Positions 4,036-34,098 of a stretch of DNA of 37,836 bases are shown here, piece after piece. Position 1 is the first letter of the stretch, and each line of letters starts with the position of its first letter. Position numbers and translations under genes: made by a program. Source of the DNA: an uncultured bacterium (GTDB lineage Bacteria > Schekmanbacteria > GWA2-38-11 > J061); contig CAZJVM010000022.1 of the NCBI GenBank assembly GCA_964549305.1, positions 1 through 37,836 on the forward strand, given 5' to 3'. The notes beneath the pieces were generated by a model. The model was given only the letters and a program-made list of their open reading frames with translations. It ran no database searches and was not told the origin of the DNA.

Positions 4036-4893
4036 CTAACCTTTGAAGGTATCGGCAAGGGTAAAAATCATAACGGCTATGCTTACCACAGCGTTTACCG
4101 TGAAGAATGCCTCGTTTATTCTGCTGAAATCATCTTCCTTTACGATGAAATGCTCATAGGCAATGAATATTGCGCACAAACAGACACCGGCAATGAAAAT
4201 TATTCCGAGATTTGCCGAATATGTCAAAAAACAGAGCGCAACAATCATCAATGCGTGGAGAACGCGCGCTGAGACAAGTGATGCCTTTACTCCAAACTTC
4301 ACCGGGAATGAATGGAGTCCTTCTTTTTTGTCAAAATCCAAATCCTGAAGGGAATACAGGATGTCAAAGCCGGCAGTCCATAGAAGCACTGCCGTGCCGA
4401 GAAGTATGGATGTTAAAGAAATTTCTCCCCTTACGGCAACCCACGCGCCCACGGGGGCAACTCCCAGCGCGAGTCCGAGAAAAAAATGTGAAAGAAAGGA
4501 GAAGCGCTTCGTAAATGAGTAAAAGGAAATTATAAGTATCGCCACAGGAGAAAGAACGAAGGCAAGACGGTTTATGTTGTAAGCCGATAATTCGAATATC
4601 AAAAGAGCGCCTGCCGCATAGGCAAACATCCTCTTCCTGCTTAATCGTCCCGCGGGAATTGCCCTGTTTTTCGTCCTTTCGTTTCTGCTGTCATAATCGG
4701 CGTCAATGATTCTGTTAAAAGCCATCGCCCAGCTTCTTGCGCCAAACATTGCAAGAATAACCCAGAAAAAAAGCCCAGGTCCGGGGAAGGAATCCGCGGC
4801 TATAACCATTGATGTTATCGCGAAGGGAAGAGCAAAAACGGTGTGCTCTATTTTTATGTCTTTTAAAAAATCAGTTAATCCGCTCTTTGCCAT
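4036..4893 (-). CDS. UbiA-family polyprenyltransferase, futalosine-pathway (MqnP-like) subtype
   Basis: Motifs IKIEHTVFALPFA, AMAFNRIIDADYD..N.RT..R.IPAG, YSFTKRF and GFDILYSLQD..FD; 1-bp overlap with the methyltransferase gene. Confidence 0.88.
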   Translation of the reverse strand: MAKSGLTDFLKDIKIEHTVFALPFAITSMVIAADSFPGPGLFFWVILAMFGARSWAMAFNRIIDADYDSRNERTKNRAIPAGRLSRKRMFAYAAGALLIFELSAYNINRLAFVLSPVAILIISFYSFTKRFSFLSHFFLGLALGVAPVGAWVAVRGEISLTSILLGTAVLLWTAGFDILYSLQDLDFDKKEGLHSFPVKFGVKASLVSARVLHALMIVALCFLTYSANLGIIFIAGVCLCAIFIAYEHFIVKEDDFSRINEAFFTVNAVVSIAVMIFTLADTFKG

Positions 4894-5588
4894 TATTTTT
4901 TTACACCCGTATGAAGCGTCGCGATACCCATTGAAAGGTCATTATATTCAACTTCTTCAAATCCCGCGGAGATAAGTTTTTCGCTCATTTCACCGCGCGT
5001 GACAAACCCTTCCACTGAGTCGCGGAGATAGGAGTAGGCGGAAGCGTCGCCTGAAACTATTCTCCCTATTGCCGGTAGTATGAAGCGCAGATAGGGCAGA
5101 AAAAGATATGACAGGAAAACTCCCTCGGGTTTGTAGAAATCAAGGACTACCGCCCTGCCTCCTTTTCTGATTACACGGGACATCTCGGACAAAGCGTCAT
5201 CGAGCGCGGGAATATTCCGCAATCCGAAAGCAACAGTGACGGAATCGAAAATATCCCCCTTAAAGGGAAGCTTGAGGGAGTCAGCGGAAAATATCTCGAT
5301 TTCATCGAGAATTTTATTTCCTTTGATTTTTCTTTTCCCCTCGACAAGCATTTCAGGACAAAAATCCGAGGAAACAACAACCGCTGACTCATTCTGTCTC
5401 TTTATCTCTATTGAAAGGTCAAGCGTGCCCGCGCACATATCGAGTACCCTATTTCCCGCGGAAAGCGCCGTGCGCGCGGATTTTTCCCTCCACCCTCTGT
5501 CAAGCCCGAAACTTAAAAGATGGTTCAGAAGGTCGTATCGCCCCGTTATGGAGGCAAACATCTTTTTTACGAATTTGGGATTTGCCAT
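4893..5588 (-). CDS. menG: Demethylmenaquinone methyltransferase (UbiE/MenG family)
   Basis: Motifs MFASI...YDLLNHLLSFGLD..WR, VLDMCAGTLD, AFGLRN and AYSYLRDS; ATG 5588 has an AAGGA RBS (ORF track extends to 5615). Confidence 0.88.
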   Translation of the reverse strand: MANPKFVKKMFASITGRYDLLNHLLSFGLDRGWREKSARTALSAGNRVLDMCAGTLDLSIEIKRQNESAVVVSSDFCPEMLVEGKRKIKGNKILDEIEIFSADSLKLPFKGDIFDSVTVAFGLRNIPALDDALSEMSRVIRKGGRAVVLDFYKPEGVFLSYLFLPYLRFILPAIGRIVSGDASAYSYLRDSVEGFVTRGEMSEKLISAGFEEVEYNDLSMGIATLHTGVKK

Positions 5589-5829
5589 TGATATTTCCTT
5601 AATTACAGTGCGCATTTAACACAAATAAACTCTCAAATCTATATTCAACTGCCCGCTTATTTGTTTTGCTTTTTCGAAAATTCTTTCGCGCTTTCTTCAA
5701 AGTATTTAAATTGACTAAAAAAAACATCTGCATTAAAATGCCCGTAAAAGCAAAATCTGAATTGTTTAAAACCATTTCCAATTAAGCATTGTTGCGAAAT
5801 TAAAGAGAACGCTGAAAAGGAGACCTCAA

Positions 5830-19811: not shown

Positions 19812-20600
19812 ATGCGTGAAACCGTTACAATGTGGAAATATACTAAAATGGTTGTGCTTTGCGCTATAACGGCTGCAATATTCGCGGCAATTCTGATTCC
19901 CATGAAAAGCATACCAATCATACCCGGGTCAACGGAAATCAGGCCCGCGTCGGTCATTCCCGTTGTCTTCGGAATTCTCTTCGGGCCTGCCGGTGCCTGG
20001 GGTTCCGCATTGGGAAATTTAATAGGCGACTTCTTCGGCACTCTGGGAATAGGAACAATCTTCGGCCTTATAGGAAATTTTTTCTTCAGTCTCACGGCAT
20101 ACCGCTTAATCAACGCAAGGGACATTTATCATAACTACTGGCAAAAGAAGAGCAAGGTAGTCTTCTGTTCCTTTTTTCTTTATGTGGGCATCGTATCGAG
20201 CGCCGCCTGCGCGTCTATAATTGCCTGGGGGTTAGACATTCTCGGTCTTGTCCCCTTCTCGGTGCTCGCGTCGATTATCTTCATCAACAATCTCATAGTC
20301 TCCGTAGTCCTCGGTCCCCTCGTATTCCTTGTCCTTTATCCGAGAGTGGAAAAATGGGATATGCTTTGGACCGACATACTGAAGGCTTCCGATTTTCACA
20401 AATGCACAGCATCAAAAACCGCAAAGATTCTAATCATCACCGGAAGCATCGGAGCGCTGGCAGTTGGAATTATCCTTTCATCGGGATTCGGCGGAAAAAT
20501 CCCCATAGTTTCCGAGGGGTCTTTTCTTTCTCAATACGCAACCGGGATATCAGTTGTACCGTTCCTCATCATACTCTTAGCTGGCTGTATAATACCCTGA
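19812..20600 (+). CDS. ECF transporter substrate-specific S component (QueT-like family, extended)
   Basis: Motifs MWKYTKMVVL, IIPG.TEIRPA..IPVVFGILFGPAGAWG.A.GNLIGD; about 7-8 TM segments; adjacent to the ECF ATPase gene. Confidence 0.8.
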   Translation: MRETVTMWKYTKMVVLCAITAAIFAAILIPMKSIPIIPGSTEIRPASVIPVVFGILFGPAGAWGSALGNLIGDFFGTLGIGTIFGLIGNFFFSLTAYRLINARDIYHNYWQKKSKVVFCSFFLYVGIVSSAACASIIAWGLDILGLVPFSVLASIIFINNLIVSVVLGPLVFLVLYPRVEKWDMLWTDILKASDFHKCTASKTAKILIITGSIGALAVGIILSSGFGGKIPIVSEGSFLSQYATGISVVPFLIILLAGCIIP

Positions 20601-20608
20601 TTTCTCAA

Positions 20609-22321
20609 ATGGATAAGGAAAAAAAACCACTTCTTGAAGCCGAAGATATAACCTTTTCCTATAAAAATTCTTCGAATAAACAGCTTGACGGCATCTCATT
20701 CAAAATCAATGAAGGTGATTTTGTGGCAGTACTTGGAAAAAGCGGCGCAGGAAAATCCACTCTTTTGCTTACCCTAAACGGTCTCATTCCAAACTTAATC
20801 AGAGGAGATTTCAAGGGGAAAGTAACACTACTGGGGCAGGATATTTCATCTTCGTCCCTTGCGGAATCATCAAAAATAACGGGCATAGTTTTTCAGGATT
20901 TCGAATCACAGCTTTTCTCCACAAGCGTTGACCTCGAAATTGCCTTCGGACTTGAGAATCTCGGAAGGGAAAGGGAAAAAATCAAAGAGGCTATTTTAAA
21001 ATACCTCGCGATGACGGGGCTTGACGGTTTTGAATCAAGACAACCCGCAATGCTTTCGGGGGGAGAAAAACAGCGCCTTGCAATTGCGTCAATGCTTGCT
21101 ATGGAACCGGTTTTAATCTGCCTCGACGAACCCACCACCGACCTTGATCCGGAAGGCAAGGAAAGCGTCTTTAATGTGGTAAAAAAAATCAAGGAAGACA
21201 GGAACAGGACTATCGTGGCAGTGGAACACGAAACTGACGAACTCATTAATTCCGACAAGTGCATACTGATTAACGAGGGAAAAATAATCTTCCTGGGAAA
21301 AAGCGAAGAGATTTTTATAAAAACCGATATGCTCGAGGAATACGGAATCCTTCCTCCCCAACTTGCCCTCATTGCAAAACTTGCGGGTTTCGAAAGGCCT
21401 TTTCGCAACGCGGAAGAATCGGTTTCTTTCATAAAAGCAAAGGGATATTCCATCGACGGGAACGCCGTGGCAAATCTGAAGCAAAGAGATGAGGAAGAGT
21501 TTTCCGCCATAAGGAATTCAGAAATTGAGATAGAATTGGATAATGTGTTTTTTTCCTATGAAGGTGAAAAAGATATCCTCAAAGATATGTCAATTCAATT
21601 CAGGAAAGGCGAGATAACGGCTATTGCCGGAGGAAACGGAAGCGGAAAAACAACTCTTGTAAAGCATTTCAACGGACTGCTTTCTCCCAAATCAGGGAAG
21701 ATAAAGTTAATGGGCAGGGATATAAATGATTACAGCAGTATCGAGCTTGCGCAAAAAGCGGGATTCGTTTTCCAGAATCCCGACTGCCAGATTTTTTCCG
21801 AAACGGTAATGGATGAAGTGGCATTCACACCGCGCCTCCTCGGACTCGATGAGGAGGAAATCGAAAGGAGAGTGAAGGACGCGCTTGATGCCGTGGGACT
21901 TTCCGCCTATGCTGATTATGATCCATTTGTTCTCACAAAGGGCGAAAGACAGAAAATTGCCGTAGCATCGGTGCTTGCGGCGAAAAGCCGTATCATCATA
22001 CTCGATGAACCAACCACGGGGCTTGATTTCAGCGAGCTTAAGGGAATGATGGAGCTTCTTCTCGATTTAAACGGGCAGGGGCATACTATCATTATGGTAA
22101 CCCACTCCATGCACGTAATCACGAATTATGCAAAAAGATTGATAATAATGAATAAGGGGAAGATTGCTTTTGACGGCAAAACAGCAGACGCTGTGGCGGA
22201 CGAAAAACTGCTGTCTGAAAACAATATGAAGGCGCCTGAAGTAGTAAAAATATCCTCTTTGCTCGGATGTCCGCTGAAATCCTTTGATGATTTTAAAAAA
22301 GCGGTTAAAATAAATAATTGA
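20609..22321 (+). CDS. ECF transporter ATPase with duplicated A-A' domains
   Basis: Two NBDs: GKSGAGKST/LSGGEKQR/DEPT and GGNGSGKTT/FQNPD/LTKGERQK/DEPT. ATG 20609 lies 8 bp after the S-gene stop; the ORF-track start at 20354 overlaps the S gene. Confidence 0.9.
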   Translation: MDKEKKPLLEAEDITFSYKNSSNKQLDGISFKINEGDFVAVLGKSGAGKSTLLLTLNGLIPNLIRGDFKGKVTLLGQDISSSSLAESSKITGIVFQDFESQLFSTSVDLEIAFGLENLGREREKIKEAILKYLAMTGLDGFESRQPAMLSGGEKQRLAIASMLAMEPVLICLDEPTTDLDPEGKESVFNVVKKIKEDRNRTIVAVEHETDELINSDKCILINEGKIIFLGKSEEIFIKTDMLEEYGILPPQLALIAKLAGFERPFRNAEESVSFIKAKGYSIDGNAVANLKQRDEEEFSAIRNSEIEIELDNVFFSYEGEKDILKDMSIQFRKGEITAIAGGNGSGKTTLVKHFNGLLSPKSGKIKLMGRDINDYSSIELAQKAGFVFQNPDCQIFSETVMDEVAFTPRLLGLDEEEIERRVKDALDAVGLSAYADYDPFVLTKGERQKIAVASVLAAKSRIIILDEPTTGLDFSELKGMMELLLDLNGQGHTIIMVTHSMHVITNYAKRLIIMNKGKIAFDGKTADAVADEKLLSENNMKAPEVVKISSLLGCPLKSFDDFKKAVKINN

Positions 22322-22400: not shown

Positions 22401-22416
22401 TGGCACGTATATTGCA
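22401..22416 (+). promoter_or_regulatory. sigma54 (-24/-12) promoter
   Basis: TGGCACGTATATTGCA matches TGGCAC-N5-TTGC, 40 bp upstream of the activator ATG. Confidence 0.85.
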
Positions 22417-22456: not shown

Positions 22457-24805
22457 ATGAATAAAGGACCTGAAATACTTGTCGTAGACGACAACAAAAG
22501 CTTCAGAAGAGGTCTCAACCTCTCCTTCAGCGCTGAAGGTTACAGCGTAACCGAAGCCGAAAACGGCATTCAGGCGTTAAAAACTCTTAAAGAGGGAAGT
22601 TTTGATATTCTCATCAGCGATATCCGGATGCCGGGATTGAGCGGACTCGAACTTCTTGAAAAATTAAAGGAAATGGAGTGCGACTGCCCGGTAATAATGA
22701 TTACGGCGCACGCTTCAGTGGATGTTGCCGTTGACGCAATGAAGAAGGGCGCATTCGATTTCATCGAAAAACCCTTTAAATTTCAAGACATTGAGCTGAA
22801 AGTCAAAAAAGCCCTCGAAAAGCTTTCACTCGTTCGCGAGGTGAAAAAGCTTTCACGGGAAAACGAATATCTCAAGGACGAGGCGAAAAGCGAATACGAC
22901 TTCGAAAACATTGTCGGGAAAAGCAAAAAGATGCTTGAAGTCTATTCGCTCATAAAGAAAATCGCGGCAAGCAGTTCAAACGTGCTGATTTACGGCGAAA
23001 GCGGCACGGGAAAAGAGCTTGTGGCAAGGGCAGTGCATTACAGAAGCGACAGAAGCAACGCGCCTTTTATTAGAATCAACTGCAGTGTCTATCCTGAAAA
23101 CCTTCTCGAAAGCGAACTTTTCGGACATGAAAAAGGCGCCTTTTCAGGCGCTTCGAAATCACGCGTCGGCAGGTTTGAAATAGCAGACGGAGGGAGCATC
23201 TTTATCGATGAAATCGGCGAGCTTTCGGCGCCCGCACAGATAAAGCTTTTAAATGTCATACAGGAAAGAGAGTTTGAAAGAATCGGTGACAATAAGACAA
23301 GAAAGGTAGATGTGAGAATAATCGCCGCAACGAACAAAGACCTTGCGGAATCTGTAGTCAACAAGCAATTCAGGGAAGACCTTTATTACAGGCTCAATGT
23401 CATAAGCATCACTCTACCGCCTCTTAGAGAAAGAAAGGAAGACATCCCCGCTCTCAGTTTCCATTTTTTGAAAAAATACGGAACAGGCAAAAACGCACTG
23501 AAAAAACAACCGATTACAGGAATTTCCAAAGACGCGCTGGACATTCTTTCGGCGTATCATTGGCCGGGAAACGTAAGAGAGCTTGAAAATGTCATAGAGC
23601 GCGCGGTAGTCCTCGCCGAAGGTTCACTTCTTGAAACTCCCGACCTTCCCATGGCGATTCGCACAGATAACCACGCGGAAAGAGTCATCGCGGAAAATGA
23701 CGGCGGAAACCTTCAGGACAAAATCGCGGATTATGAAAAGGCAATTATCGAAAAAGCATTCGAAAAATGCAACGGAGTCATTTCTAAAACAGCGGAAGAG
23801 TTGGGAGTGGAAAGAAATGCCCTTCGTTACAAGCTTAAAAAATACGGTTTCATCGCCCTTTTTCTTTGCGCCTTCCTCTATTCAGTCTTTATGCCGACTG
23901 CATACGCTTTTGACAGCGATGTAAAAGAGGAAACAACGATACTTTGGTCTAAAATATCTGATATTAAAGCGAAAATCAGAGATATATCAACACGGCAGAA
24001 ACTGATTGAGCGAACTTCAAAAGAAAAATCAGAACTGCTGGAAAGAAAAAAGCTGTCCGGCGGTTTTCTTCCCGCATCGGCAGACAATGAGATACAGAAT
24101 CTTTTAAAAGAGATACGCGACCTTTCCGACGAATACACATCCCTTCAGAAGGAGAAAATACGGTTATCACGGGAAATATCAGACTATTCGGAACAATATA
24201 TAAAAGCAGGCTCTCTCAGAATTAAGATGTTGACTGAGAACATCCGGAAAACTTCTTCCGGAGGGGAAACGCCGGAGTGGATTCAGGAATACAGGGAAAT
24301 AGAGGAGATAGAAAAGAATATCTCGCAAGTGACATATTCAGGAAAAAGCAGACTGGAAATCATTGACGGAAACATAGAAATAAGCATATTCAGAAATAAT
24401 CCAAATAATATAGACAGGATAACGGAAGAAATCGAATATATTGACGAAGGCGTAAGTATGCTTATCCAATCGCTCGATAAACTCCATTCAAGACTGGAAT
24501 ATCTTTACAACGTAAAGGAAGCTAAGGAAAGACTAAGTGCTATGTATCGCCGGATTCACTCGGGCGACCGCCTGAAACCCTCTGAACTTGCAGCGGTTTC
24601 AAATCTTGAAAAAGACATAAAATCCCTCGAAGATGAAATTGAAATAATTAAGAATGATATCTCCTTGTCTGAGATAAAGATAAAAGAATTCAAAAAAAAA
24701 TATGCGGAATTAGAAGAAATGATATCCTCATATGAAGACGAGAATATAATAACGGAAAACAAGAGAAAAGAAAACCTGTTGATTCCCGCAAAATCAGAGA
24801 AGTAG
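22457..24805 (+). CDS. sigma54-dependent response regulator (REC-AAA+-HTH, NtrC/AtoC family) fused to a hydrophobic helix and ~300-aa coiled-coil domain
   Basis: REC (VVDD, SDIRMPGLSG, KP); Walker A GESGTGKE; ESELFGHEKGAFSGA; FREDLYYRLNV; WPGNVRELEN; Fis-type HTH ending LRYKLKKYG; then FIALFLCAFLYSVFMPTAYA and heptad-rich E/K/I/L sequence. Confidence 0.88.
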   Translation: MNKGPEILVVDDNKSFRRGLNLSFSAEGYSVTEAENGIQALKTLKEGSFDILISDIRMPGLSGLELLEKLKEMECDCPVIMITAHASVDVAVDAMKKGAFDFIEKPFKFQDIELKVKKALEKLSLVREVKKLSRENEYLKDEAKSEYDFENIVGKSKKMLEVYSLIKKIAASSSNVLIYGESGTGKELVARAVHYRSDRSNAPFIRINCSVYPENLLESELFGHEKGAFSGASKSRVGRFEIADGGSIFIDEIGELSAPAQIKLLNVIQEREFERIGDNKTRKVDVRIIAATNKDLAESVVNKQFREDLYYRLNVISITLPPLRERKEDIPALSFHFLKKYGTGKNALKKQPITGISKDALDILSAYHWPGNVRELENVIERAVVLAEGSLLETPDLPMAIRTDNHAERVIAENDGGNLQDKIADYEKAIIEKAFEKCNGVISKTAEELGVERNALRYKLKKYGFIALFLCAFLYSVFMPTAYAFDSDVKEETTILWSKISDIKAKIRDISTRQKLIERTSKEKSELLERKKLSGGFLPASADNEIQNLLKEIRDLSDEYTSLQKEKIRLSREISDYSEQYIKAGSLRIKMLTENIRKTSSGGETPEWIQEYREIEEIEKNISQVTYSGKSRLEIIDGNIEISIFRNNPNNIDRITEEIEYIDEGVSMLIQSLDKLHSRLEYLYNVKEAKERLSAMYRRIHSGDRLKPSELAAVSNLEKDIKSLEDEIEIIKNDISLSEIKIKEFKKKYAELEEMISSYEDENIITENKRKENLLIPAKSEK

Positions 24806-24949: not shown

Positions 24950-24965
24950 TGGCACGAATTTTGCA
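24950..24965 (+). promoter_or_regulatory. sigma54 (-24/-12) promoter
   Basis: TGGCACGAATTTTGCA matches TGGCAC-N5-TTGC. Confidence 0.88.
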
Positions 24966-25375: not shown

Positions 25376-26047
25376 ATGATGAAGATGAAAACTTTTTTAA
25401 TCACCTTTATTGTTTCATTATCGATGTTTGTATCAGCTTTTTTCATTACCGAAGTTGCAATTTCAAAATGCAGTAAATCGGTAACAAAGGGCAAAAACCT
25501 TTATGTGGCAAACTGCCAAAGCTGTCACGGCAATAAAGGAAAGATTCACAGAATCAACAGAGAAAGCAGAAGAAGCTTTATGAGGGATGTCCTTGGAAGC
25601 AAGGGCAGATCAGACAGACAGGACAAAGATAATGAAAACGGCGAAAACGAAAGAGATTTCGACAAAGATTCAGAAAATGCTTCAGGAAGTTCTTCAATGC
25701 CCGGTTTTAAAGGAACATTGAAAAAGAGTCAGGTTAATTCCATATACCGTTATCTTAAAAAACCTAAAAAAGCCTGCAACAACGGTGGTGGTAACAACAG
25801 TGGTGGAACAACAAATCCCACATACTCAAGCGACATAAGCAGTCTTCTGTCTTCAAACTGCACCGCCTGCCACAACTCTTCGTCTGCGGCAAAGGGAGTT
25901 GCACTCGATACTTACGCCGATGCCGTATCAAACGCTTCCGCGGCAAAAACAACTATCGATAGTGGCACTATGCCTCCGGGAGGTTCGCTTTCCGCCTCAC
26001 TTGTGTCAACATTTGATACCTGGGTGGCAAATGGCACTCCGCAATAA
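25376..26047 (+). CDS. Exported diheme cytochrome c
   Basis: Signal peptide; CQSCH...MPGF and CTACH...MPPG (His/Met class I type); Gly/Asn linker; second domain resembles planctomycete-type cytochrome c domains; AAGGAG RBS. Confidence 0.85.
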   Translation: MMKMKTFLITFIVSLSMFVSAFFITEVAISKCSKSVTKGKNLYVANCQSCHGNKGKIHRINRESRRSFMRDVLGSKGRSDRQDKDNENGENERDFDKDSENASGSSSMPGFKGTLKKSQVNSIYRYLKKPKKACNNGGGNNSGGTTNPTYSSDISSLLSSNCTACHNSSSAAKGVALDTYADAVSNASAAKTTIDSGTMPPGGSLSASLVSTFDTWVANGTPQ

Positions 26048-26069
26048 TAAAACAGAAATAGCATAACAG

Positions 26070-26100
26070 GAAAAAGGAGGCATTTTATGTCTCCTTTTTC
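26070..26100 (+). terminator. Intrinsic terminator after cytochrome c
   Basis: AAAAAGGAGGCAT-TTT-ATGTCTCCTTTTT followed by a T-rich tail. Confidence 0.85.
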
Positions 26101-26132
26101 TTATTTTTGAATAAAATATGGAGGATTTCATA

Positions 26133-26161
26133 TTGACAGTAATCAGAAAAAGAAATTTAAT
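26133..26161 (+). promoter_or_regulatory. Candidate sigma70 promoter of the U32 operon
   Basis: TTGACA-N17-TTTAAT, 20 bp before ATG 26182. Confidence 0.55.
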
Positions 26162-26181: not shown

Positions 26182-27357
26182 ATGAAAATTACTTTGCCCA
26201 CGACATTCGAAGATTCATTCGTTGACGGACTTAGACAGATAAACGAAAATTCTCCTCAGGATTCACCTAAAATAGGAGAAGTTTACGGAAGTCTTCAAAG
26301 CTCCATTCTTGCTTCCGCGAGACCGTCGAAATATCTGCCCTCTCCCGATTTCAAGGGAATCAAAAAGCATATCAAAGCCCTGAATAGCGCGGGCATCGCT
26401 TTCTCTTATCTCGTGAATGCCCCCTGCATAGGGAATGTTGAATATTCCCAAACTGGAAGAAAAGAGATTGAAGAGCTTTTTGGCCGTCTTTGCGACAACG
26501 GAGTAACCCGAATGGTAGTTACCATTCCCTACCTTATAGAAATATTACGGGAAAAATTTCCCGGCATAGAAATCTGCGCGTCTTCAATCTGCTACATTTC
26601 AAACGTAAAAATCGCAAAACGCTATGAAGATCTGGGTGTAAAAAGAATCATCATCGACCCGGACAAAAACAGGGATTTCAACCTTATCAGAAAAATAGCA
26701 AACTCAGTTAATTGCGAAATTGAGATAATCGCAAACCATACCTGCATTCATCATTGTTCATATGAATACTACCACTACAACAATACAGGGCACGGGAGTC
26801 AGCGCGCGGAAAGAGTACGGGAGAAACCTTACAATCAATACAACCTGCTTTCCTGCACGCTGAAGAAGCTCGAATCTCCCTGGGAATTTCTCGCGTCTCC
26901 CTGGATACCGCCTGCAGACACAGGCGTTCTGAAAGATAAGGGTGTAAACTGGCTTAAACTTGCCGGCAGAGGGTCATCATCAGAAACTCTTCTTAAACTT
27001 GCAGACGCCTACGCTAACAGAAAGCACGATAAAGACCTGATCTCTCTTTTAGGCTGGTGCCACTGGAATAATTTCAGAAAAAAGGGAGACAATTCTTCAC
27101 TGCCGGAATTGAAAGTACTTCTCGACTCGGAAAAACTGGAAGGGTTCATCGATAAATTCAGAAAACATTATGACTGCGACGACGGTTGCGAAACCTGCAG
27201 TCATTGCAAAAAATACGCGGAAAAAGCTATAAGTTATGATATTGAGCTTTTAAAGGAATACAGAAAAAATCTTTCGGAGAAACTATCATCGGTTATCAGA
27301 GAAGACAAAAAGAAAGAGGCAACACAAAGGAATACACATCTCAAGGTATTACCCTGA
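26182..27357 (+). CDS. Peptidase U32-superfamily Fe-S protein (candidate O2-independent hydroxylase)
   Basis: Motifs EVYGS, F.YL.NAPC, ASSI, D.NRDF, ANHTCIHHC...H...C, PWI, LKLAGR; C-terminal CDDGCETCSHC. Confidence 0.78.
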   Translation: MKITLPTTFEDSFVDGLRQINENSPQDSPKIGEVYGSLQSSILASARPSKYLPSPDFKGIKKHIKALNSAGIAFSYLVNAPCIGNVEYSQTGRKEIEELFGRLCDNGVTRMVVTIPYLIEILREKFPGIEICASSICYISNVKIAKRYEDLGVKRIIIDPDKNRDFNLIRKIANSVNCEIEIIANHTCIHHCSYEYYHYNNTGHGSQRAERVREKPYNQYNLLSCTLKKLESPWEFLASPWIPPADTGVLKDKGVNWLKLAGRGSSSETLLKLADAYANRKHDKDLISLLGWCHWNNFRKKGDNSSLPELKVLLDSEKLEGFIDKFRKHYDCDDGCETCSHCKKYAEKAISYDIELLKEYRKNLSEKLSSVIREDKKKEATQRNTHLKVLP

Positions 27358-27372
27358 CTGAAAAATGATTTA

Positions 27373-28869
27373 ATGGAAAAGATATTCTTTATAACAGGCG
27401 CCACAGGGTTGCTTGGAAGCAGACTCGCTTATAACCTTATCTCGTCGGGTTATAAAACAATCTGTCTTTCACGGTCAAAGGACAACGAAGACGCGTACAA
27501 TCGTGTGCTAAAGAGCGTTTCCTTTTGGAGTGAAGAGGGTCTTCATAGATACAAAGACAATCTGGAGATAATAGAGGGCGACATTGAAAAGAAAAATCTC
27601 GGACTCCACAGGGAGACAATAGCACGCCTCGGAAATATCCGCCCCGTTGTCATACACTGCGCGGCTTGTACATCCTTTGATTTGCGCGACAGGGACTCCC
27701 TTTTCAAAACCAACCTCGAGGGCACCATAAACGCCACAGACGCGGCGCGCCTTTTTTCGGCATCCCAATTCAATCACATAAGCACGGCATATGTGGCGGG
27801 CAACTGCGATGATATATTTTCCGAAAATGATTTTGACGTGGGACAATCCTTTAAAAACGCCTATGAGTCATCTAAATTCGAAGCTGAAAAAGCAGTGAGA
27901 AAGTTCGGAGAAGAAACAGGGATTCAGGCATTGATATTCCGCCCTTCAATAATAATGGGAGACCACTCATCGGGAAAAACATTTAACTTCAACGCCATAT
28001 ACACATACTTAAGGGTCATCAACGCCATAAAGGGCAGAGGAATAGAAAAAAAAGAGGGCGAAATCAGATTTGAATGCAGAAAAGATGTCGTAAAAAACAT
28101 CATTCCCATAGATTACGCGGCAGACTCCGTTTCAAAAATCATACTTTCATCTGATGAAGATTCACCGCAAACATATCACATAACAAATCCGGGTCCTCCG
28201 TCATTTTCAGGGCTTAATGATTCTATTCACAGAATTCTTTCCGTAAATCCTCTTAATCTTGTGGAATCGCTTTCAGATAACGGAGATAAATCTTCTAAAA
28301 CTGAATTGCTTTTAAAAAACGCAATGAAGTCATATCGCCCCTACCTTTTTCACGAACCGCTTTTCGCCTCGATGCGCACCAATACGATTCTCGAAGAAAA
28401 AGGAATCTTCTTTCCTCAAATCGACGAAGCATACTACAAACGAATAGTTGACTTTTTTACAAAGAGGCACTCACATAATCTTCCGGAAAGAAGCGGCATA
28501 ATAAAGATTTTCGAGCTAAAAATGCGTCTTTCGGTCGGAAGCGAAATAATCCCCAATCTTAAGTCGCTAACGAAAGACTTCATACTTTGTATAAGCGATA
28601 TCGGTGTGACTTATTATATGAGCGTAGAAAATGGCAGGCTTGTGAAATTCGCTGTAAATGAATCCCCTGAAAAAGCGGTATTCAAGTTTATCACCTCTTG
28701 CGACACATTCGAAAAACTTCTCCTAATGAAAGTAGGTCCTCAGGAGGCATTTTTCAAAAAGCTTGTCCGAATTGAAGGCTCGGTTATCGATGCGCTCTCT
28801 CTTTCAACGGTTTTCGAAGAATTTTTCGCACTTTTCAATAAAGAGACAAATGCATCCCAAATGGTTTGA
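27373..28869 (+). CDS. Extended SDR (fatty acyl-CoA/thioester reductase-type) fused to a C-terminal SCP2-like lipid-binding domain
   Basis: Motifs ITGATGLLG, IHCAA, N.EGT, HISTAYVAG, YESSK (YxxxK), RPSII.G; C-terminus ...FEKLLLMKVGPQEAFFKKLVRIEGSV fits the SCP2 pattern. Confidence 0.8.
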   Translation: MEKIFFITGATGLLGSRLAYNLISSGYKTICLSRSKDNEDAYNRVLKSVSFWSEEGLHRYKDNLEIIEGDIEKKNLGLHRETIARLGNIRPVVIHCAACTSFDLRDRDSLFKTNLEGTINATDAARLFSASQFNHISTAYVAGNCDDIFSENDFDVGQSFKNAYESSKFEAEKAVRKFGEETGIQALIFRPSIIMGDHSSGKTFNFNAIYTYLRVINAIKGRGIEKKEGEIRFECRKDVVKNIIPIDYAADSVSKIILSSDEDSPQTYHITNPGPPSFSGLNDSIHRILSVNPLNLVESLSDNGDKSSKTELLLKNAMKSYRPYLFHEPLFASMRTNTILEEKGIFFPQIDEAYYKRIVDFFTKRHSHNLPERSGIIKIFELKMRLSVGSEIIPNLKSLTKDFILCISDIGVTYYMSVENGRLVKFAVNESPEKAVFKFITSCDTFEKLLLMKVGPQEAFFKKLVRIEGSVIDALSLSTVFEEFFALFNKETNASQMV

Positions 28870-29947
28870 CATAAGCACAGACGAGTGGATTCGCCATATC
28901 ACGGAAATCCATTTTCATCCCGAAGAAGGCGCGCCCTACTGGCTGAAATTTCAGAAGGAGCGCGGCATAGATGCCTTGCGCGAAATAAGACGCGCCGATG
29001 ACCTTATAAAACTGGGTCCTATGGATGAAAAAGAGCTTGCCCGAATTCCCGTGGAAGAATTCATTCCGAAGCGTTTTATGAAGGACAAATCGCGGATTCT
29101 CACAGCGGAAACGGGAGGCACAACGGGAGTTGTAAAGAATACGGCGTATTCCATCGGGGAATTCAGATATGCCTTCTCTGATTTCTTTCATAAGGTCGCG
29201 TCCGGGCGAAACTTTCCCGGCAACCTTAACTGGCTTTTTGTGGCGCCTTCGGGACCTCACATCATATACCGCTCGGCAATCGAGATGGCAAAATCATTTG
29301 GAGCAATGTCACCCTTTGCAGTTGATTTCGATCCGAGATGGGTAAAAAAATTGAACCCCGGTTCACTCCCCTTTAAACGATACAAGGCGCATATTCTGGA
29401 GCAGGCGCTTAGAATAATACATACTCAAAATATCGGAATTCTTTTTACCACTCCCGACATCGCCCTGAACATTGCCGAAGAGTTGAAACCGCGTACGCGC
29501 GAATTGATAAAGGGAATTCATCTCGGCGGACTTCCGGTTTTTCCCCATATTTACGAAAAACTGTCGGGGCTTTTCCCGTCGGCAGTCATTATACCGGGCT
29601 ACGGTAATACCCTTTTCGGGCTTACGCTCGAAGTCAAACATCCTGACAGGGATTACAATGTCACCTACTATCCTCCGGGTCCGCGGCTGATAATCGACAT
29701 TCTCAAGCTGTCAGACAACAAAGGTCCCGCGACGCTTGAAAAAACCGATTACGGTGAAAGAGGGCGTGTAGCTTTTCACCGCCTTGATGAAATATTTTTC
29801 ATCCCCAACCTCATAGAAAGAGATGAAGCGGAACGCGCCGAACCGGAATCTGTCTGTACCTGGAAAGCGGGCTCGCAGGACGGAATCAGAAACCCCGCGC
29901 CTTCGCGGGATAAAAAAGAAATAACCATTAAGGAGGGATTATATTGA
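28850..29947 (+). CDS. EhpF/GriC-type adenylate-forming aryl-carboxylate activating enzyme (PaaK-like ANL fold)
   Basis: Motifs HF.PE.GAPYW, ETGGTTG, PSGPH, VDFDPRWVKK, LFTTP, LGG, YGNT, YGERGRV, ERD.A.R and terminal EGLY match my recollection of the EhpF/GriC family. ATG 28850 overlaps the SDR gene end and gives 365 aa. Confidence 0.8.
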   Translation: MHPKWFDISTDEWIRHITEIHFHPEEGAPYWLKFQKERGIDALREIRRADDLIKLGPMDEKELARIPVEEFIPKRFMKDKSRILTAETGGTTGVVKNTAYSIGEFRYAFSDFFHKVASGRNFPGNLNWLFVAPSGPHIIYRSAIEMAKSFGAMSPFAVDFDPRWVKKLNPGSLPFKRYKAHILEQALRIIHTQNIGILFTTPDIALNIAEELKPRTRELIKGIHLGGLPVFPHIYEKLSGLFPSAVIIPGYGNTLFGLTLEVKHPDRDYNVTYYPPGPRLIIDILKLSDNKGPATLEKTDYGERGRVAFHRLDEIFFIPNLIERDEAERAEPESVCTWKAGSQDGIRNPAPSRDKKEITIKEGLY

Positions 29948-30540
29948 AAAGGGCATTAAGGGCTTTACTTCTGACGGCATTGTTTCTGTCATCGATTATA
30001 ATAACTTCCGCGCGATGTGAAACCGTGCGTTACGATTTTGACTCTTCTTCGAGCAAAATTGTTTTTCACGGCAGGTCCACCCTGCACGCATTTGAGGGCA
30101 TAGTTGAGGAGGTTTCCGGATTTGCCGGGGGCGACACGCAATATATCGAGAGGTCCTCAAACGGTGAATTTCACGTGAAAGTGGAATCGATGAAATGCGA
30201 AAGTGAAAAGATGAATAAAAATATGCTCGAAGACCTGGAATCCGAAAAATTCCCTTCCATAGATTTTGTACTCTCGGACACAAGTGTGCTAAAATCTCCT
30301 GATGAGGAAAAGCAATATTACCTTGCAAGCATTACGGGTAACCTGAGTATTCACGGCGAAACAAAAAAAATAACCTTCCCCGCGGAAGTGGAGATGAATG
30401 AAAAGGATTTCAATCTGCGGGCTACTGTGCCTCTTTCTCTTGCAGACTTTGACATAAAGCCGAAAACTCTGCTCTTTTTCATAAGAGTCAAGGATGATAT
30501 AACTCTTGATATAAACCTTCACGGGAAAAGGAATCAATAA
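29944..30540 (+). CDS. YceI-family periplasmic lipid/polyisoprenoid-binding protein
   Basis: Signal peptide; S.I.F.G.STLH.FEG, LESEKFP.I.F, G.L.IHG.TK, DF.I.P, V.D.I; TTGA overlap with the upstream stop; AAGGAGG RBS. Confidence 0.85.
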   Translation: MKRALRALLLTALFLSSIIITSARCETVRYDFDSSSSKIVFHGRSTLHAFEGIVEEVSGFAGGDTQYIERSSNGEFHVKVESMKCESEKMNKNMLEDLESEKFPSIDFVLSDTSVLKSPDEEKQYYLASITGNLSIHGETKKITFPAEVEMNEKDFNLRATVPLSLADFDIKPKTLLFFIRVKDDITLDINLHGKRNQ

Positions 30541-30543
30541 ATA

Positions 30544-31209
30544 TTGGAAGAAAAACTTTTTCTGGACAATAATGGAATCCCTCTCGAGGGAATTCTTTCC
30601 TATCCCGAAAACACATCTGAAGAGAAACCCGTTGCCATATTTCCTCCCCATCCGAAATTAGGCGGAAACATTGAAAACAATGTTGTAACTGCCCTATCAT
30701 CGTCGCTTAGCGACGCGGGCTTTTTAACAGGAAGATTCAACTACCGCGGAGTGGGCAAAAGCGGAATGGAAATTGAAAATACCACGCTCTTCGACTATTG
30801 GGAGAACCTCGACTCCTCGGGAGATTTTACGAATATAATTTCCGATGCTGCAATCATAACGGATAAATTGATGAAGGTTTCTTCTGCCAAAACCCTTTGC
30901 CTTGCAGGTTATTCTTTTGGCACGAGGATTGCCGCGGAATTTTGCGAAAAATCCTTCACTGAAAAAGCGGTATTCATATCTCCCCCCCTCTCCTTTTACG
31001 ATTATTCATTCCTCTCCTGTTTCAAAGGAAGCGCGCTCTTCATAATCGCGGAAAACGACATATGTCTCAGCGAAGACGAGTTAATATCCTTTATTGATAA
31101 AACCGGAATAAAGGGCAAAATCAAAGTAATAGACGGCGAAGACCATTTTTACAGGGAAAGCGAAGAAAAAATCGCGAAGCTTGCCGTGAATTTTTTACAA
31201 GAGGGCTAA
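30544..31209 (+). CDS. Alpha/beta hydrolase
   Basis: Motifs PHPKLGGNIENNVV, RFNYRGVGKS, nucleophile GYSFG, END and DHFY (Ser-Asp-His triad). Confidence 0.85.
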   Translation: MEEKLFLDNNGIPLEGILSYPENTSEEKPVAIFPPHPKLGGNIENNVVTALSSSLSDAGFLTGRFNYRGVGKSGMEIENTTLFDYWENLDSSGDFTNIISDAAIITDKLMKVSSAKTLCLAGYSFGTRIAAEFCEKSFTEKAVFISPPLSFYDYSFLSCFKGSALFIIAENDICLSEDELISFIDKTGIKGKIKVIDGEDHFYRESEEKIAKLAVNFLQEG

Positions 31210-31239
31210 AACCCTGCAGATAATTTTTAATTAATTCAT

Positions 31240-31995
31240 ATGGCGTCAATCAATATAAAAGATCTGGTTAAAAGTTATAACGACAGGCGCGCCCTCGACT
31301 GCCTCAATATGGAAATCCGAAGCGGTGAAATAATGGGGCTTTTGGGCCCAAACGGCGCGGGCAAAACAACGCTTCTCTCCATCCTCTCCGCTGTATTCAC
31401 TCAGGATAGCGGCACAGTTGATATTGTTGAAAAAAAGGGATTTTCCGGCACTCCCGCGGATTTCAAACAGAATACAGGAATTGTCCCCCAGGATATTTCA
31501 CTTTACGGAGATTTCAACTCTATTGAAAATATCGTTTTCTTCTCGAGGATGTACGGAAAGGGAGGAAAATCTCTCAGAGATAAAACTTCAGAGCTTCTTT
31601 CCCTGGCAGGACTTGAAAAGCGGAGCAGGGAAAGGATTAAAAATCTCTCCGGAGGAATGAAAAGACGGCTCAATTTCGTTTGCGGTCTGGTAAATTCTCC
31701 TTCTCTTGTCCTGCTCGACGAACCCACGGTCGGTGTTGACCCGCAGTCGCGCGAACACATATACTCCATGGTACGACGCCTTAGAGATGAAGGGGTGACG
31801 GTCATTCTTGCAACACACTATATGTTCGAAGCGGAAACACTGTGCGACAGGATTGCCGTTATGGACAGGGGAAAAGTTCTAATGGTGCACACTGCCGATG
31901 AATATATGTCTCTTTTCGGAGAAAAGCTGGGACTTGAAGGAATCAATATGGAAAAGATTTTTCTTCACATAACGGGGAAAGAACTTCGGGATTGA
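31240..31995 (+). CDS. ABC exporter ATP-binding protein (ABC-2/drug-resistance type)
   Basis: Motifs GPNGAGKTT, LSGGMKRRLN, LDEPTVGVDPQSR, THYM.EAE.LCDR and ITGKELRD. Confidence 0.92.
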   Translation: MASINIKDLVKSYNDRRALDCLNMEIRSGEIMGLLGPNGAGKTTLLSILSAVFTQDSGTVDIVEKKGFSGTPADFKQNTGIVPQDISLYGDFNSIENIVFFSRMYGKGGKSLRDKTSELLSLAGLEKRSRERIKNLSGGMKRRLNFVCGLVNSPSLVLLDEPTVGVDPQSREHIYSMVRRLRDEGVTVILATHYMFEAETLCDRIAVMDRGKVLMVHTADEYMSLFGEKLGLEGINMEKIFLHITGKELRD

Positions 31996-31996
31996 A

Positions 31997-33220
31997 ATGG
32001 TCAAACTTTTTTACATAGTCCTCAAAGAGCTGAAACTTCTCGCAAGGGACAAGACATCGCTCATCCTCATGACTGCCGTACCCATTGTCGTAATCTCCGT
32101 GGCAGGACTGGCATTGAGCGGACTTTACGGAAAATCAGGCACGGGAGTGAAGATTTATATTCCCGTTGCAGACCTCGACAACAGGGAGTTTTCCTCTATT
32201 TTGCCTGAAATTCTTGAAAAAAGCGGACTCTTTACAATAGAAAAAGTATCTGAAGAGGAAGCATACGCCCTTGTGAGGGATAAGAACAAAGCGGCAGCAG
32301 CAATAATAATTAAGCGGGGATTTTCAAAAAACTGCATTACCGGAGGTGTGCCTGAAATAAAACTGATAACCGACCCCGCAAAAGCTCTCGAAATATCAAC
32401 CGTAAAGAGCGCTCTCAGGGAATTCGAAATTCGCCTGTCTTCAGCACTTCAAAAAATAAGGGGCATGAAATCATCTTCGCTTCCCCTTCTGCTTTCTCTC
32501 AACCCTTCGCTCATTGAAACAAAATTCAGGTCGCTTATTAAAAAGGAATCCGCGTCATCGGTAAAAATTGTCGAGGAAAACCTTACGGGAATAAAAAAGA
32601 ATCTGAACTCATTCGACCAGAATGTTCCGGGATTCAGCATAATGTTTGCAATGTTCGGAATGCTATACGGCTTTTCGGAAAGTATTTTCAGGGAAAGAGA
32701 TGAAGACAATACCATAAGGCGTTTTCTCTCATCTCCGGCAGGTTTCTCATCTTTTCTTCTCGGAAAACTCATATCAAAAATAATAACGGGATTTATCCAA
32801 CTTGCCATACTTTTTGCCTTCGGACATTTTGTTTTCCATATGTCGCTGGGAAATTCATTGGCGGGAATGGCAACGGCTATTCTCGGAATCTCATTCGCTT
32901 CCGCGTCAATCGGGCTTCTCGTTTCGAGCCTTTCGGATACGCGCGAGCAGGCGCGCTCTCTCGGCACACTGGTAATTCTCACACTTGCGGGTCTTGGCGG
33001 ATGCTGGTGGCCTCTTTTTATAGAACCTTCATGGATGCAGAAGCTTTCACTTCTTGCAATGCCCGCGTGGGGGATGAACTGCTTTTATAACTTTATGCTG
33101 AGAGGCAAAGGAATCGCGGAAACTGCTTATTACCTTGGCGGACTCTATCTTTATGCCGTAATCGCCCTTGTCGCGGGAATGATAATTTTTTCACGCTGGG
33201 ATGAAAGGCGACTCCTTTGA
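31997..33220 (+). CDS. ABC-2 type exporter permease
   Basis: KELK...RD, one TM plus large extracytoplasmic loop, PGFSIMF, LGGCWWP, PSWMQ, five C-terminal TMs. Confidence 0.9.
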   Translation: MVKLFYIVLKELKLLARDKTSLILMTAVPIVVISVAGLALSGLYGKSGTGVKIYIPVADLDNREFSSILPEILEKSGLFTIEKVSEEEAYALVRDKNKAAAAIIIKRGFSKNCITGGVPEIKLITDPAKALEISTVKSALREFEIRLSSALQKIRGMKSSSLPLLLSLNPSLIETKFRSLIKKESASSVKIVEENLTGIKKNLNSFDQNVPGFSIMFAMFGMLYGFSESIFRERDEDNTIRRFLSSPAGFSSFLLGKLISKIITGFIQLAILFAFGHFVFHMSLGNSLAGMATAILGISFASASIGLLVSSLSDTREQARSLGTLVILTLAGLGGCWWPLFIEPSWMQKLSLLAMPAWGMNCFYNFMLRGKGIAETAYYLGGLYLYAVIALVAGMIIFSRWDERRLL

Positions 33221-33318: not shown

Positions 33319-34098
33319 ATGGACTATTTTCTCTACAAGGACAACGATTCGCCTGTTAACGGGCTTGACCCCCGAACGAAGATTTTTATTCTCGCAATCT
33401 CTTTTCTCCTTTCACTTCTTTTCCAGCATCCTCTTTACAACTCGGCAGTCCTTCTCCTGATTATCTGTTACGGCATAATGGGAAAAGCGACTGGAAGCAT
33501 CAAAGTGATATGGAAAATGATATTGGTGATTTCAATCCTTTCTGTACTCATCTGGACATTCTCACTCGGAGGGAAAACTCCGCTATTCTGGAAAATACGC
33601 CTCGAACCCCTTCTTTACGGAATTGCCGCGGCAATTAAGATAAACTCGATGATTATAGCGGGCCTTATTTTCCTCACCACAACGCGAAATGAAGACATAA
33701 GCCTGGGACTTATAAAACTGGGACTTCCCTACCGAATCGGCTTCGCCTTTTCAACTGCCCTGAGACTCGTGCCTACATTTATCGGTACGGCAATGACAGT
33801 GATTCAGGCGCAGAAGGCGCGCGGATTCGACCCTTTTACGGGAAGCATAATTGAAAGAATCAGGAAGTTTGTCCCTCTCCTGGGTCCCGTATTTCTCCTT
33901 ACGCTGAGAAGCGCGGACACTCTTTCCCTTGCCCTTGAGTCAAGGGGATTTTCCATAAGGGAAAAAAGGACTTTTTACAGGATGATAAATATAGACACAA
34001 AGGATATTATCTTTCTTTCGGTTACGGCAATTCTTCTTTTCGCGGCAATATGGATTAAGTTTACCGGCGCGGGAAACCTCGAAGGTATTATAAGGTAA
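33319..34098 (+). CDS. ecfT: ECF transporter transmembrane T component
   Basis: Motifs DS....LDPRTK, TT...D, ALR.VP and the two Arg motifs AQKARG and ALESRGF. Confidence 0.92.
   Translation: MDYFLYKDNDSPVNGLDPRTKIFILAISFLLSLLFQHPLYNSAVLLLIICYGIMGKATGSIKVIWKMILVISILSVLIWTFSLGGKTPLFWKIRLEPLLYGIAAAIKINSMIIAGLIFLTTTRNEDISLGLIKLGLPYRIGFAFSTALRLVPTFIGTAMTVIQAQKARGFDPFTGSIIERIRKFVPLLGPVFLLTLRSADTLSLALESRGFSIREKRTFYRMINIDTKDIIFLSVTAILLFAAIWIKFTGAGNLEGIIR

Follow-up and report, generated by a model that had tools for sequence, protein, structure and literature searches.

In the Pseudomonadota, the U32 proteins UbiU and UbiV act with the SCP2 protein UbiT to hydroxylate a prenylated quinone precursor without O2 (PMC6747719, in excerpt). 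Most U32 families carry four conserved cysteines, spaced CX6CX15CX3/4C, that bind a 4Fe-4S cluster (PMC6747719, in excerpt), and a function is known for only a minority of the twelve U32 subfamilies (PMC10990095, in excerpt). Here we describe an operon at positions 26182-33220 of contig CAZJVM010000022.1 (assembly GCA_964549305.1) of an uncultured Schekmanbacteria bacterium, in which a divergent U32 gene precedes genes for a short-chain dehydrogenase/reductase (SDR) fused to an SCP2 domain, an EhpF-like adenylating enzyme, a YceI-family protein, a hydrolase and an ABC-2 type transporter. The whole contig of 37,836 nt was analysed and is called the window below.

The likeness of this locus to UbiT-UbiU-UbiV, which serves ubiquinone synthesis, lies in a U32 protein, here a probable Fe-S protein, beside an SCP2 domain in an anaerobe, and the fusion of SCP2 to a pathway enzyme has a precedent in an existing ubiT-ubiU gene fusion (PMC6747719, in excerpt). 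Whereas UbiU and UbiV form a heterodimer, the window has a single divergent U32 protein with another cysteine spacing and an extra C-terminal C-x3-C-x2-C-x2-C motif. Unlike UbiT, the SCP2 domain is fused to a reductase, and instead of ubiquinone the host has menaquinone, made through the futalosine pathway.

In the two-protein ATP-dependent carboxylate reductases EhpF/EhpG, GriC/GriD and ThnN/ThnO, the partners EhpG, GriD and ThnO are aldehyde-dehydrogenase-like. The adenylating enzyme of the window is a homologue of EhpF that likewise lacks the C-terminal domain of the ANL superfamily, and some of its database homologues carry the name ThnN. Its partner, in contrast, is a thioester-reductase-type SDR fused to SCP2, and a hydrolase, a U32 protein and predicted exporters are added to the pair. 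The carboxylic acid reductases (CAR; adenylation, peptidyl carrier and reductase domains, A-PCP-R) and the terminal reductases of non-ribosomal peptide synthetases (NRPS) and polyketide synthases (PKS), such as MxaA, have a homologous reductase domain and the same adenylate-then-reduce logic, but here the system is split into separate proteins, and the operon encodes neither a carrier domain nor a phosphopantetheinyl transferase. LuxCDE has the same three-part logic of hydrolase/transferase, truncated synthetase and reductase, but its reductase is LuxC, whereas that of the window is an SDR. The operon thus passes the individual family tests but fits no characterised system as a whole. A search of the full-text literature, in which coverage of subscription journals is poor, found no published description of the gene combination, in line with the original prediction made for this DNA, which had called it a candidate for an undescribed operon. 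Our preferred reading, which we put forward tentatively, is that the conserved operon encodes a split carboxylic-acid reductase and an O2-independent U32 oxidation that act on a lipophilic acid, the product then being exported.

Conservation of the Operon

All seven genes lie on the + strand with intact reading frames (Table 1), and no gap or overlap between them exceeds 30 bp, as had been predicted. They are single-copy in the 2.94-Mb genome of this bacterium. The EhpF-like open reading frame (ORF) opens at TTG 28763, but the likely start is the ATG at 28850, since homologues align from there.

The grouping is beyond chance, as the order recurs in other genomes. It is kept throughout in three further species genomes of the phylum (L172, L173 and L174), and also in a Lentisphaerae metagenome-assembled genome (MAG; L001, the same contig as L090) and in metagenome contigs L088 and L089. 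Contig L087 has the same order up to the EhpF-like gene, where it ends, and a Syntrophales MAG (L032) shows the order only from the reductase onward because its contig starts there. Conserved synteny of the genes for U32, SDR-SCP2, EhpF-like enzyme and YceI, which had been suggested as a check of the operon, is therefore confirmed, and it extends to the hydrolase and ABC-2 transporter genes. Among five species genomes of the phylum, all but one, which is 70% complete, carry the EhpF-like gene, and the closest database homologues are labelled Candidatus Schekmanbacteria.

A metagenome search anchored on the U32 protein gave 80 loci, with the reductase gene directly downstream in 18 and the EhpF-like gene as well in 11. 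All 18 are among the 21 loci with the U32 nearest to that of the window, and in the remaining three of these the sequence extends no more than 1.5 kb downstream. Both the reductase and the EhpF-like gene are absent from all 59 U32 loci of greater distance. As these neighbours are confined to the 21 nearest loci, we take the window-type U32 clade to be dedicated to the cluster. The subfamily is rare, with 21 protein clusters in a large protein database. Distant U32 relatives (L106-L166, 27-37% identity), some of them with a Bathyarchaeia label, are often encoded by two or three U32 genes in tandem and sometimes adjoin B12 radical-SAM genes, with none of the other genes of the operon; these look like a separate, uncharacterised U32 system.

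Table 1. Features in and around the operon, in the order of their position in the window (a minus sign in the spacing column marks an overlap).
Feature	Position	Strand	Spacing to previous operon gene (nt)	Remarks
UbiA-family prenyltransferase adjoining UbiE/MenG-type methyltransferase	4036-5615	-		
QueT-like S component and fused double ABC ATPase (energy-coupling factor (ECF) type)	19812-22321			before the block of regulator, cytochrome and operon
Perfect sigma-54 motif TGGCAC-N5-TTGCA	22401-22416	+		0 mismatches; 41 nt before regulator gene
Sigma-54-dependent response regulator (receiver, AAA+, HTH_8)	22457-24805	+		Sigma54_activat E 2.7e-71
Perfect sigma-54 motif	24950-24965	+		0 mismatches; 44 nt before ATG of ORF 25009
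ORF 25009, 119 aa	25009-25368	+		no known family; may not be a real gene; tblastn 44% identity in L174
Secreted dihaem c-type cytochrome (signal peptide, two CxxCH motifs)	25376-26047	+		directly before operon region
Terminator-like hairpin, then T run	26068-26102	+		scan: 16 pairs, 5 G-C pairs, loop 3
Sigma-70-like promoter	26133-26161	+		TTGACA 26133-26138, 17-nt spacer, TTTAAT 26156-26161; by eye
U32 protein, divergent, single-domain	26182-27357	+		PF01136; probable Fe-S protein
SDR-SCP2	27373-28869	+	15	thioester-reductase-type SDR, residues 5-364; SCP2, residues 403-482
EhpF-like adenylating enzyme (ANL superfamily)	28850-29947	+	-20	
YceI-family protein	29944-30540	+	-4	PF04264; N-terminal signal peptide
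Small alpha/beta hydrolase	30544-31209	+	3	Ser124-Asp172-His201 triad
Sigma-54-like motif inside hydrolase gene	30918-30933			1 mismatch; ~307 nt before ABC ATPase start
ABC transporter ATPase, DrrA-like	31240-31995	+	30	
ABC-2 type permease	31997-33220	+	1	ABC2_membrane_3
ECF T component (CbiQ family)	33319-34098			right after the operon block

Protein Families and Motifs

Profile, structure-library and motif checks bore out all seven family assignments made from the DNA alone. The U32 protein matches PF01136 (48.3 bits, cut-off 22.4) and is confidently predicted to fold as a U32 TIM barrel; the model has a predicted local distance difference test (pLDDT) score of 85.9, and its closest PDB fold is U32 peptidase 5d88 (E 1.1e-9, target-normalised template modelling (TM) score 0.70). 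Cysteines C188, C192, C225 and C332/C336/C339/C342 are invariant in 20 homologues, the last group forming a second motif, C-x3-C-x2-C-x2-C, at the C-terminus (332-342), and C82 is kept in 17 of the 20.

The UbiU/UbiV models NF047963 and NF047965 matched none of 20 members of this subfamily at E 0.01. Against the TrhP model NF011996 the window protein scores 17.1 bits (E 0.0018), where the cut-off is 534, and it is not TrhP. RlhA proteins were recognised by a length of about 650 aa, two U32 domains and collinearity with Escherichia coli RlhA; the window protein, with 391 aa, one domain and 28% identity to E. coli RlhA over 174 residues (E 7e-9), is not RlhA either. These comparisons place the protein outside the RNA-modifying clades, membership of which had been named as a finding that would count against the predicted role.

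The second protein matches NAD_binding_4 (144.7 bits) and, in its C-terminal part, SCP2 (PF02036, 29.9 bits, cut-off 21.3), and is homologous to carboxylic acid reductase 5mso (E 4.7e-16) and MxaA 4u7w (E 3.6e-14). Its TGxxGxxG motif (T8, G9, G12, G15) and Y164-x3-K168 are invariant in 14 sequences. The EhpF-like protein (365 aa) has no Pfam or NCBIfam match at E 0.001, and 13 of 14 homologues match the AMP-binding family weakly. It matches EhpF (PDB 3l2k) with E 2.7e-27, query residues 10-330 aligning with 20-336 of the 366-residue chain, and with a 14-sequence profile the match rises to E 8e-46 and is collinear over the whole chain. The C-terminal ANL domain is absent, and P-loop residues G90, G93 and K96 are invariant.

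The YceI-family protein matches PF04264 with 76.6 bits (E 3.4e-21), its hydrophobic N-terminal signal peptide having been read by eye. The hydrolase scores 24.8 bits on Hydrolase_4, under the cut-off of 27, but the serine of its GYSFG motif, Asp172 and His201 are each kept in at least 98% of 46 homologues; it is not SglT (NF058544, 52 bits against 300) and is best described as a generic small alpha/beta hydrolase. The transporter consists of an ABC ATPase (ABC_tran, 97 bits; TIGR01188 (DrrA), E 2.2e-67, 227.5 bits, under the cut-off of 312.45) and an ABC-2 permease (ABC2_membrane_3, 129 bits, E 2.8e-37) with no substrate-binding protein, and is thus of the DrrAB type. Neither the operon nor its flanking genes encode a carrier protein. 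Gene content, conserved motifs, gene order and neighbourhood are established by these comparisons.

A Wider Family of Clusters

Relatives of the EhpF-like protein were sought among genomes of 185,579 species, and the best 80 of the 225 loci found were analysed. As many of the contigs are short, the counts of neighbours in these 80 loci are lower bounds. An SCP2 domain, fused or separate, occurs in at least 64 loci, an MMPL exporter in at least 57, a reductase and a U32 protein of any kind in at least 55 each, and a class-III aminotransferase in at least 54. The hydrolase, present in at least 38, belongs to the conserved core; outside the core, cytochromes are the most frequent neighbours (at least 39 loci). 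By their labels, over half of the 80 loci come from anammox Brocadiales (Brocadia, Kuenenia, Scalindua, Anammoxibacter, Loosdrechtia and unclassified Brocadiaceae), and most of the remainder are from Planctomycetota and Thermodesulfobacteriota.

The operon of the window represents a rarer arrangement, type A, with a single U32, YceI and ABC-2 genes and no aminotransferase. The dominant type C, found in anammox bacteria, Planctomycetota and Thermodesulfobacteriota, has a reductase, SCP2 (fused or separate), an MMPL (HAE3) exporter, an EhpF-like gene and often a hydrolase. It also encodes a class-III omega-aminotransferase, two cytochromes (one b-type, the other c554-like and multihaem) and a double U32 with a length of about 680 aa. 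Type B was seen in Hydrosulfovibrio ferrireducens CB1MN (L076), which is in culture, and in at least nine loci from metagenomes. Its genes run from a c554-like cytochrome through window-type U32, reductase, SCP2, aminotransferase, MMPL and EhpF-like gene to the hydrolase. The exporter therefore varies (ABC-2 or MMPL) while the enzyme core stays. In a FastTree reconstruction of 87 EhpF-like proteins, type A forms one clade beside the anammox clade, and a locus with YceI and no ABC permease match (L080) falls outside it.

The double U32 protein occurs in loci L023, L027, L046 and L020 and in 49 others, always beside the class-III aminotransferase. Its N-terminal half resembles TrhP, UbiU and RlhA, and its C-terminal half resembles UbiV; compared with E. 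coli RlhA, the N-terminal domain shows 40% identity over 276 aa and the C-terminal halves do not align. From its sequence it looks like a fused UbiU-UbiV-type pair. The aminotransferase of the clusters was considered as HemL and rejected, its best models being argD/PigE-like. B12 radical-SAM lipid-type enzymes adjoin some of the loci. One truncated variant (L095) has just a c554-like cytochrome, a window-type U32 and a reductase, after which come genes unrelated to the cluster (RNase II, DUF3047 and RF3).

Association with Futalosine Genes and Cytochromes

In eight of the 80 loci an MqnE-MqnC fusion, scoring above the NCBIfam cut-offs, is encoded directly upstream of the reductase. In a complete genome (G001), no copies were found other than this fusion and the MqnA/D gene that immediately precedes it. 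A gene of the MqnA/D family lies inside the cluster in 11 loci, mostly directly after the EhpF-like gene; these are labelled Gemmataceae, Singulisphaera, Phycisphaerales and other Planctomycetota, and they are without the double U32. The in-cluster MqnA/D of one genome (G003) is a third paralogue beside two others. Another locus (L092) has the order U32, MqnC/E-like radical SAM, MqnA/D-like, reductase and SCP2.

The genome of the window carries the futalosine pathway on other contigs. A gene for a UbiA-family prenyltransferase in the window adjoins one for a UbiE/MenG-type methyltransferase, and this pair probably provides late steps of menaquinone synthesis. The idea that the cluster replaces the menaquinone decarboxylase was rejected, UbiD-family genes adjoining MqnA/D in the same genome. 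An aminotransferase missing from the operon but located elsewhere was also considered; of four found in the genome, the one examined, on contig C14 near an MqnC-like radical SAM gene, looks like BioA because a BioB-like gene is adjacent.

Homologues of the dihaem cytochrome encoded just before the operon occur directly upstream of the U32 gene in L087 (66%), L174 (58%) and L172 (48%), so that two of the three other genomes of the phylum share this neighbour.

Proposed Pathway

From these genes we infer the chemical steps, the substrate and the direction of transport. The EhpF-like enzyme would adenylate the carboxyl group of a lipophilic acid, and should form an acyl-adenylate because the C-terminal ANL domain is absent. 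The SDR would reduce the activated acid to an aldehyde with NAD(P)H, while the fused SCP2 domain may hold the hydrophobic part of the substrate, the fusion itself pointing to a hydrophobic substrate. As type A lacks an aminotransferase, its product likely goes on to an alcohol through a second reduction, and in types B and C the aminotransferase would yield an amine. The Ser-Asp-His hydrolase may supply or release the acyl group. By analogy with UbiU-UbiV and the SCP2 protein UbiT, the divergent U32 protein, a probable Fe-S protein, would carry out an oxidation or hydroxylation that is independent of O2. The ABC-2 exporter would then hand the product to the periplasmic YceI lipid-binding protein; an ABC-2 transporter with a secreted YceI here, and MMPL in other loci, suggest export of a lipid-like product. 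The original prediction had proposed much the same course, with an acid activated, reduced, hydroxylated without O2 and exported as a lipophilic product. This scheme is consistent with all of the findings, and its chemistry is what the gene families suggest.

The substrate is most likely an aromatic, futalosine-pathway-derived acid of the naphthoate or quinone type. Three observations favour such a compound over a plain fatty acid: the Mqn genes, the recurrence of b- and c-type cytochromes, and the pathway to which EhpF belongs, in which an aromatic acid, phenazine-1,6-dicarboxylate, is converted (PMC3175449, in excerpt). Among the products that had been suggested from the DNA, a quinone-like cofactor is the one favoured by the genomic context of Mqn genes and cytochromes, though as an inference, and an antimicrobial has found no support. 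A hopanoid substrate was rejected, the genome of the window (100% marker completeness) having no squalene-hopene cyclase and the HpnN, HpnJ and HpnA matches being far below the cut-offs. A link to ladderane gene clusters was also dropped, a 2009 comparative paper containing none of six related terms.

A more specific proposal, which we regard as rather doubtful, is that the family makes a new futalosine-derived naphthoquinone-type lipid. Its carboxyl group, which is otherwise lost, would be reduced to hydroxymethyl (here) or aminomethyl (in the aminotransferase variants), while U32 enzymes of a novel class would hydroxylate the ring independently of O2. After export to the periplasmic side, it would serve dedicated b- and c-type cytochromes of anaerobes, including anammox bacteria.

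Several points weigh against the scheme of acid reduction and U32 oxidation or against its link to quinones. The core cysteines of the U32 protein are spaced C188-x3-C192-x32-C225, against the CX6CX15CX3/4C of most U32 families (PMC6747719, in excerpt), and characterised U32 proteins are described as being without an in vitro demonstration of direct hydroxylase activity (PMC10990095, in excerpt). The reductase scores 123.7 bits on the thioester-reductase model TIGR01746, under the cut-off of 213.35. Thioester-reductase domains normally use carrier-bound thioesters, but the operon encodes no carrier and its adenylase should make the acyl-adenylate only. The trio of hydrolase, adenylase and reductase fits a fatty-acid reductase equally well. 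The operon of the window has no Mqn gene or aminotransferase, so that the futalosine link rests on other variants, and the UbiA/UbiE genes lie 21 kb away from it. No member of the cluster family has a characterised product, substrate or activity. The family is also rare, with 225 relatives in 185,579 species, and the EhpF-like gene was found in one of 301 sampled Thermodesulfobacteriota genomes, this being the anchor genome itself.

Alternative Explanations

The explanation that comes closest is a fatty-acid reductase for an envelope lipid, similar to LuxCDE, in which the hydrolase frees an acyl group, the adenylase activates it and the SDR-SCP2 protein reduces it. The resulting fatty alcohol or aldehyde, or an amine where the cluster has an aminotransferase, would be exported by ABC-2 and YceI or by MMPL, with the U32 protein modifying the lipid or playing a side role. 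The trio of hydrolase, truncated adenylase and reductase mirrors LuxD, LuxE and LuxC, and NAD_binding_4 is the family of fatty acyl-CoA reductases. A lipid is also what SCP2, MMPL, YceI, ABC-2 and the B12 radical-SAM lipid-type enzymes near some loci point to, and the nearest protein-atlas cluster has been named automatically 'Acyl-protein synthetase, LuxE', which we take as a lead only. Yet LuxE acylates a cysteine and the adenylase has no invariant cysteine, while the Pfam LuxE family was matched by none of 14 homologues at E values up to 1. The closest solved relative, EhpF, works in an aromatic-acid pathway, the known U32-dependent hydroxylations target aromatic or heteroaromatic rings, and a fatty-acid product leaves the recurrent futalosine and cytochrome neighbours unexplained. 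We consider this explanation possible but on the unlikely side. Alternatively, the genes might serve to take up, detoxify or break down an aromatic acid under anoxia, or might make up a drug-efflux unit, the ABC-2 transporter being a resistance exporter with no part in biosynthesis. DrrA/DrrB-like ABC-2 pumps are typically resistance exporters, and an aromatic compound from outside the cell is in principle a conceivable substrate of EhpF-type and U32 enzymes. Such a role is nevertheless improbable here, as the genes are translationally coupled, the type of exporter swaps while the core enzymes are constant, genes for ring reduction or beta-oxidation are absent, and the cluster is common in the retrieved Brocadiales loci and often lies beside biosynthetic Mqn genes.

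The frequency of cytochromes among the neighbours, with a cytochrome c directly before the U32 gene in the window, L087, L172, L174 and most type B loci, raises the question of whether the operon modifies a cofactor of these proteins, for example a haem carboxylate. The clusters contain no haem-biosynthesis gene, however, and the aminotransferase is argD/PigE-like rather than HemL. With SCP2, MMPL, YceI and Mqn genes suiting a quinone or lipid better, a role in cofactor modification seems very improbable. It is harder still to credit that the adjacency is due to chance, the U32 protein being a housekeeping RNA hydroxylase or peptidase and the other genes unrelated to it. The U32 family does include the RNA-modifying TrhP and RlhA, and 14 of 20 members of the subfamily gave weak TrhP matches (best E 3.2e-6), but the window protein itself lies far below the TrhP cut-off, the genome has two other, canonical U32 genes, and the gene order is conserved across phyla from two independent anchors. 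The split carboxylic-acid reductase with O2-independent U32 oxidation accordingly remains the reading that we prefer.

Regulation and Neighbouring Genes

The operon had been predicted to have its own sigma-70-like promoter after a terminator, and both were located upstream of the U32 gene, the hairpin by scan and the promoter hexamers by eye only. The promoter is missing from the list of the promoter scan because the rule used demands an A at position 2 of the -10 hexamer; promoter-like sites in this region do not exceed chance (22 seen against 15.8 +/- 3.8 expected).

Further upstream, the window contains two perfect sigma-54 motifs, both intergenic and just upstream of + strand genes, where about 0.01 would be expected by chance in 37.8 kb (our own estimate). 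Motifs with up to two mismatches occur in the window at chance level (14 seen, 14.25 expected). The first perfect motif precedes the gene of a sigma-54-dependent response regulator, and the second is followed by ORF 25009, the dihaem cytochrome c gene and then the operon. A homologue of the regulator is encoded upstream of the operon in L172, the only one of the three other phylum genomes to have it, and sigma-54 regulators lie near the cluster in seven of the 80 EhpF-anchored loci. The strict motif gave 10 matches in 1.88 Mb across the other loci, and the position of three of these upstream of the reductase gene (L027, L034 and L042) is suggestive only. The operon is probably expressed under the adjacent sigma-54 regulator as well as from its own sigma-70-like promoter. 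Overall, the original prediction was right in the parts of the operon and their synteny; it missed the larger family, the futalosine and cytochrome link, the sigma-54 promoter and regulator, and the place of the hydrolase in the core.

The regulator is 782 aa long and its known domains stop at residue 463 (HTH_8); the C-terminal stretch of about 320 residues has no family match, and the long form is kept in L172 (53% identity). An imperfect sigma-54-like motif lies inside the hydrolase gene, and L172 has a perfect motif at the equivalent position. The motif overlaps the codons of a conserved F-G-T-x-I-A sequence that follows the catalytic serine; coding constraint, and not an internal promoter, may thus account for it.

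Components of an ECF transporter flank the regulator, cytochrome and operon genes on both sides (Table 1), which makes this 11-kb block look as if it had been inserted within an ECF transporter gene set. CbiQ and TPR genes are also found downstream of the operon in L174, of the same genus, and were not seen in L172 or L173.

Implications

How anaerobes hydroxylate compounds without O2 is a live question, and the clusters described here offer a testable context for a new U32 substrate, a rare U32 clade (with the double U32 in sister clusters) being locked together with SCP2, a split carboxylate reductase and exporters. As the operon has no NRPS or PKS core, rule-based cluster finders may miss it, as had been suggested. 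There is a real chance that the product is a new quinone-like lipid. Most of the retrieved anammox loci have the cluster family, as do many Planctomycetota and some lineages of sulfate or iron reducers, and it adjoins futalosine genes and quinol-type cytochromes. This distribution and these neighbours suggest that the product could be an unrecognised respiratory lipid or cofactor of environmentally important anaerobes.

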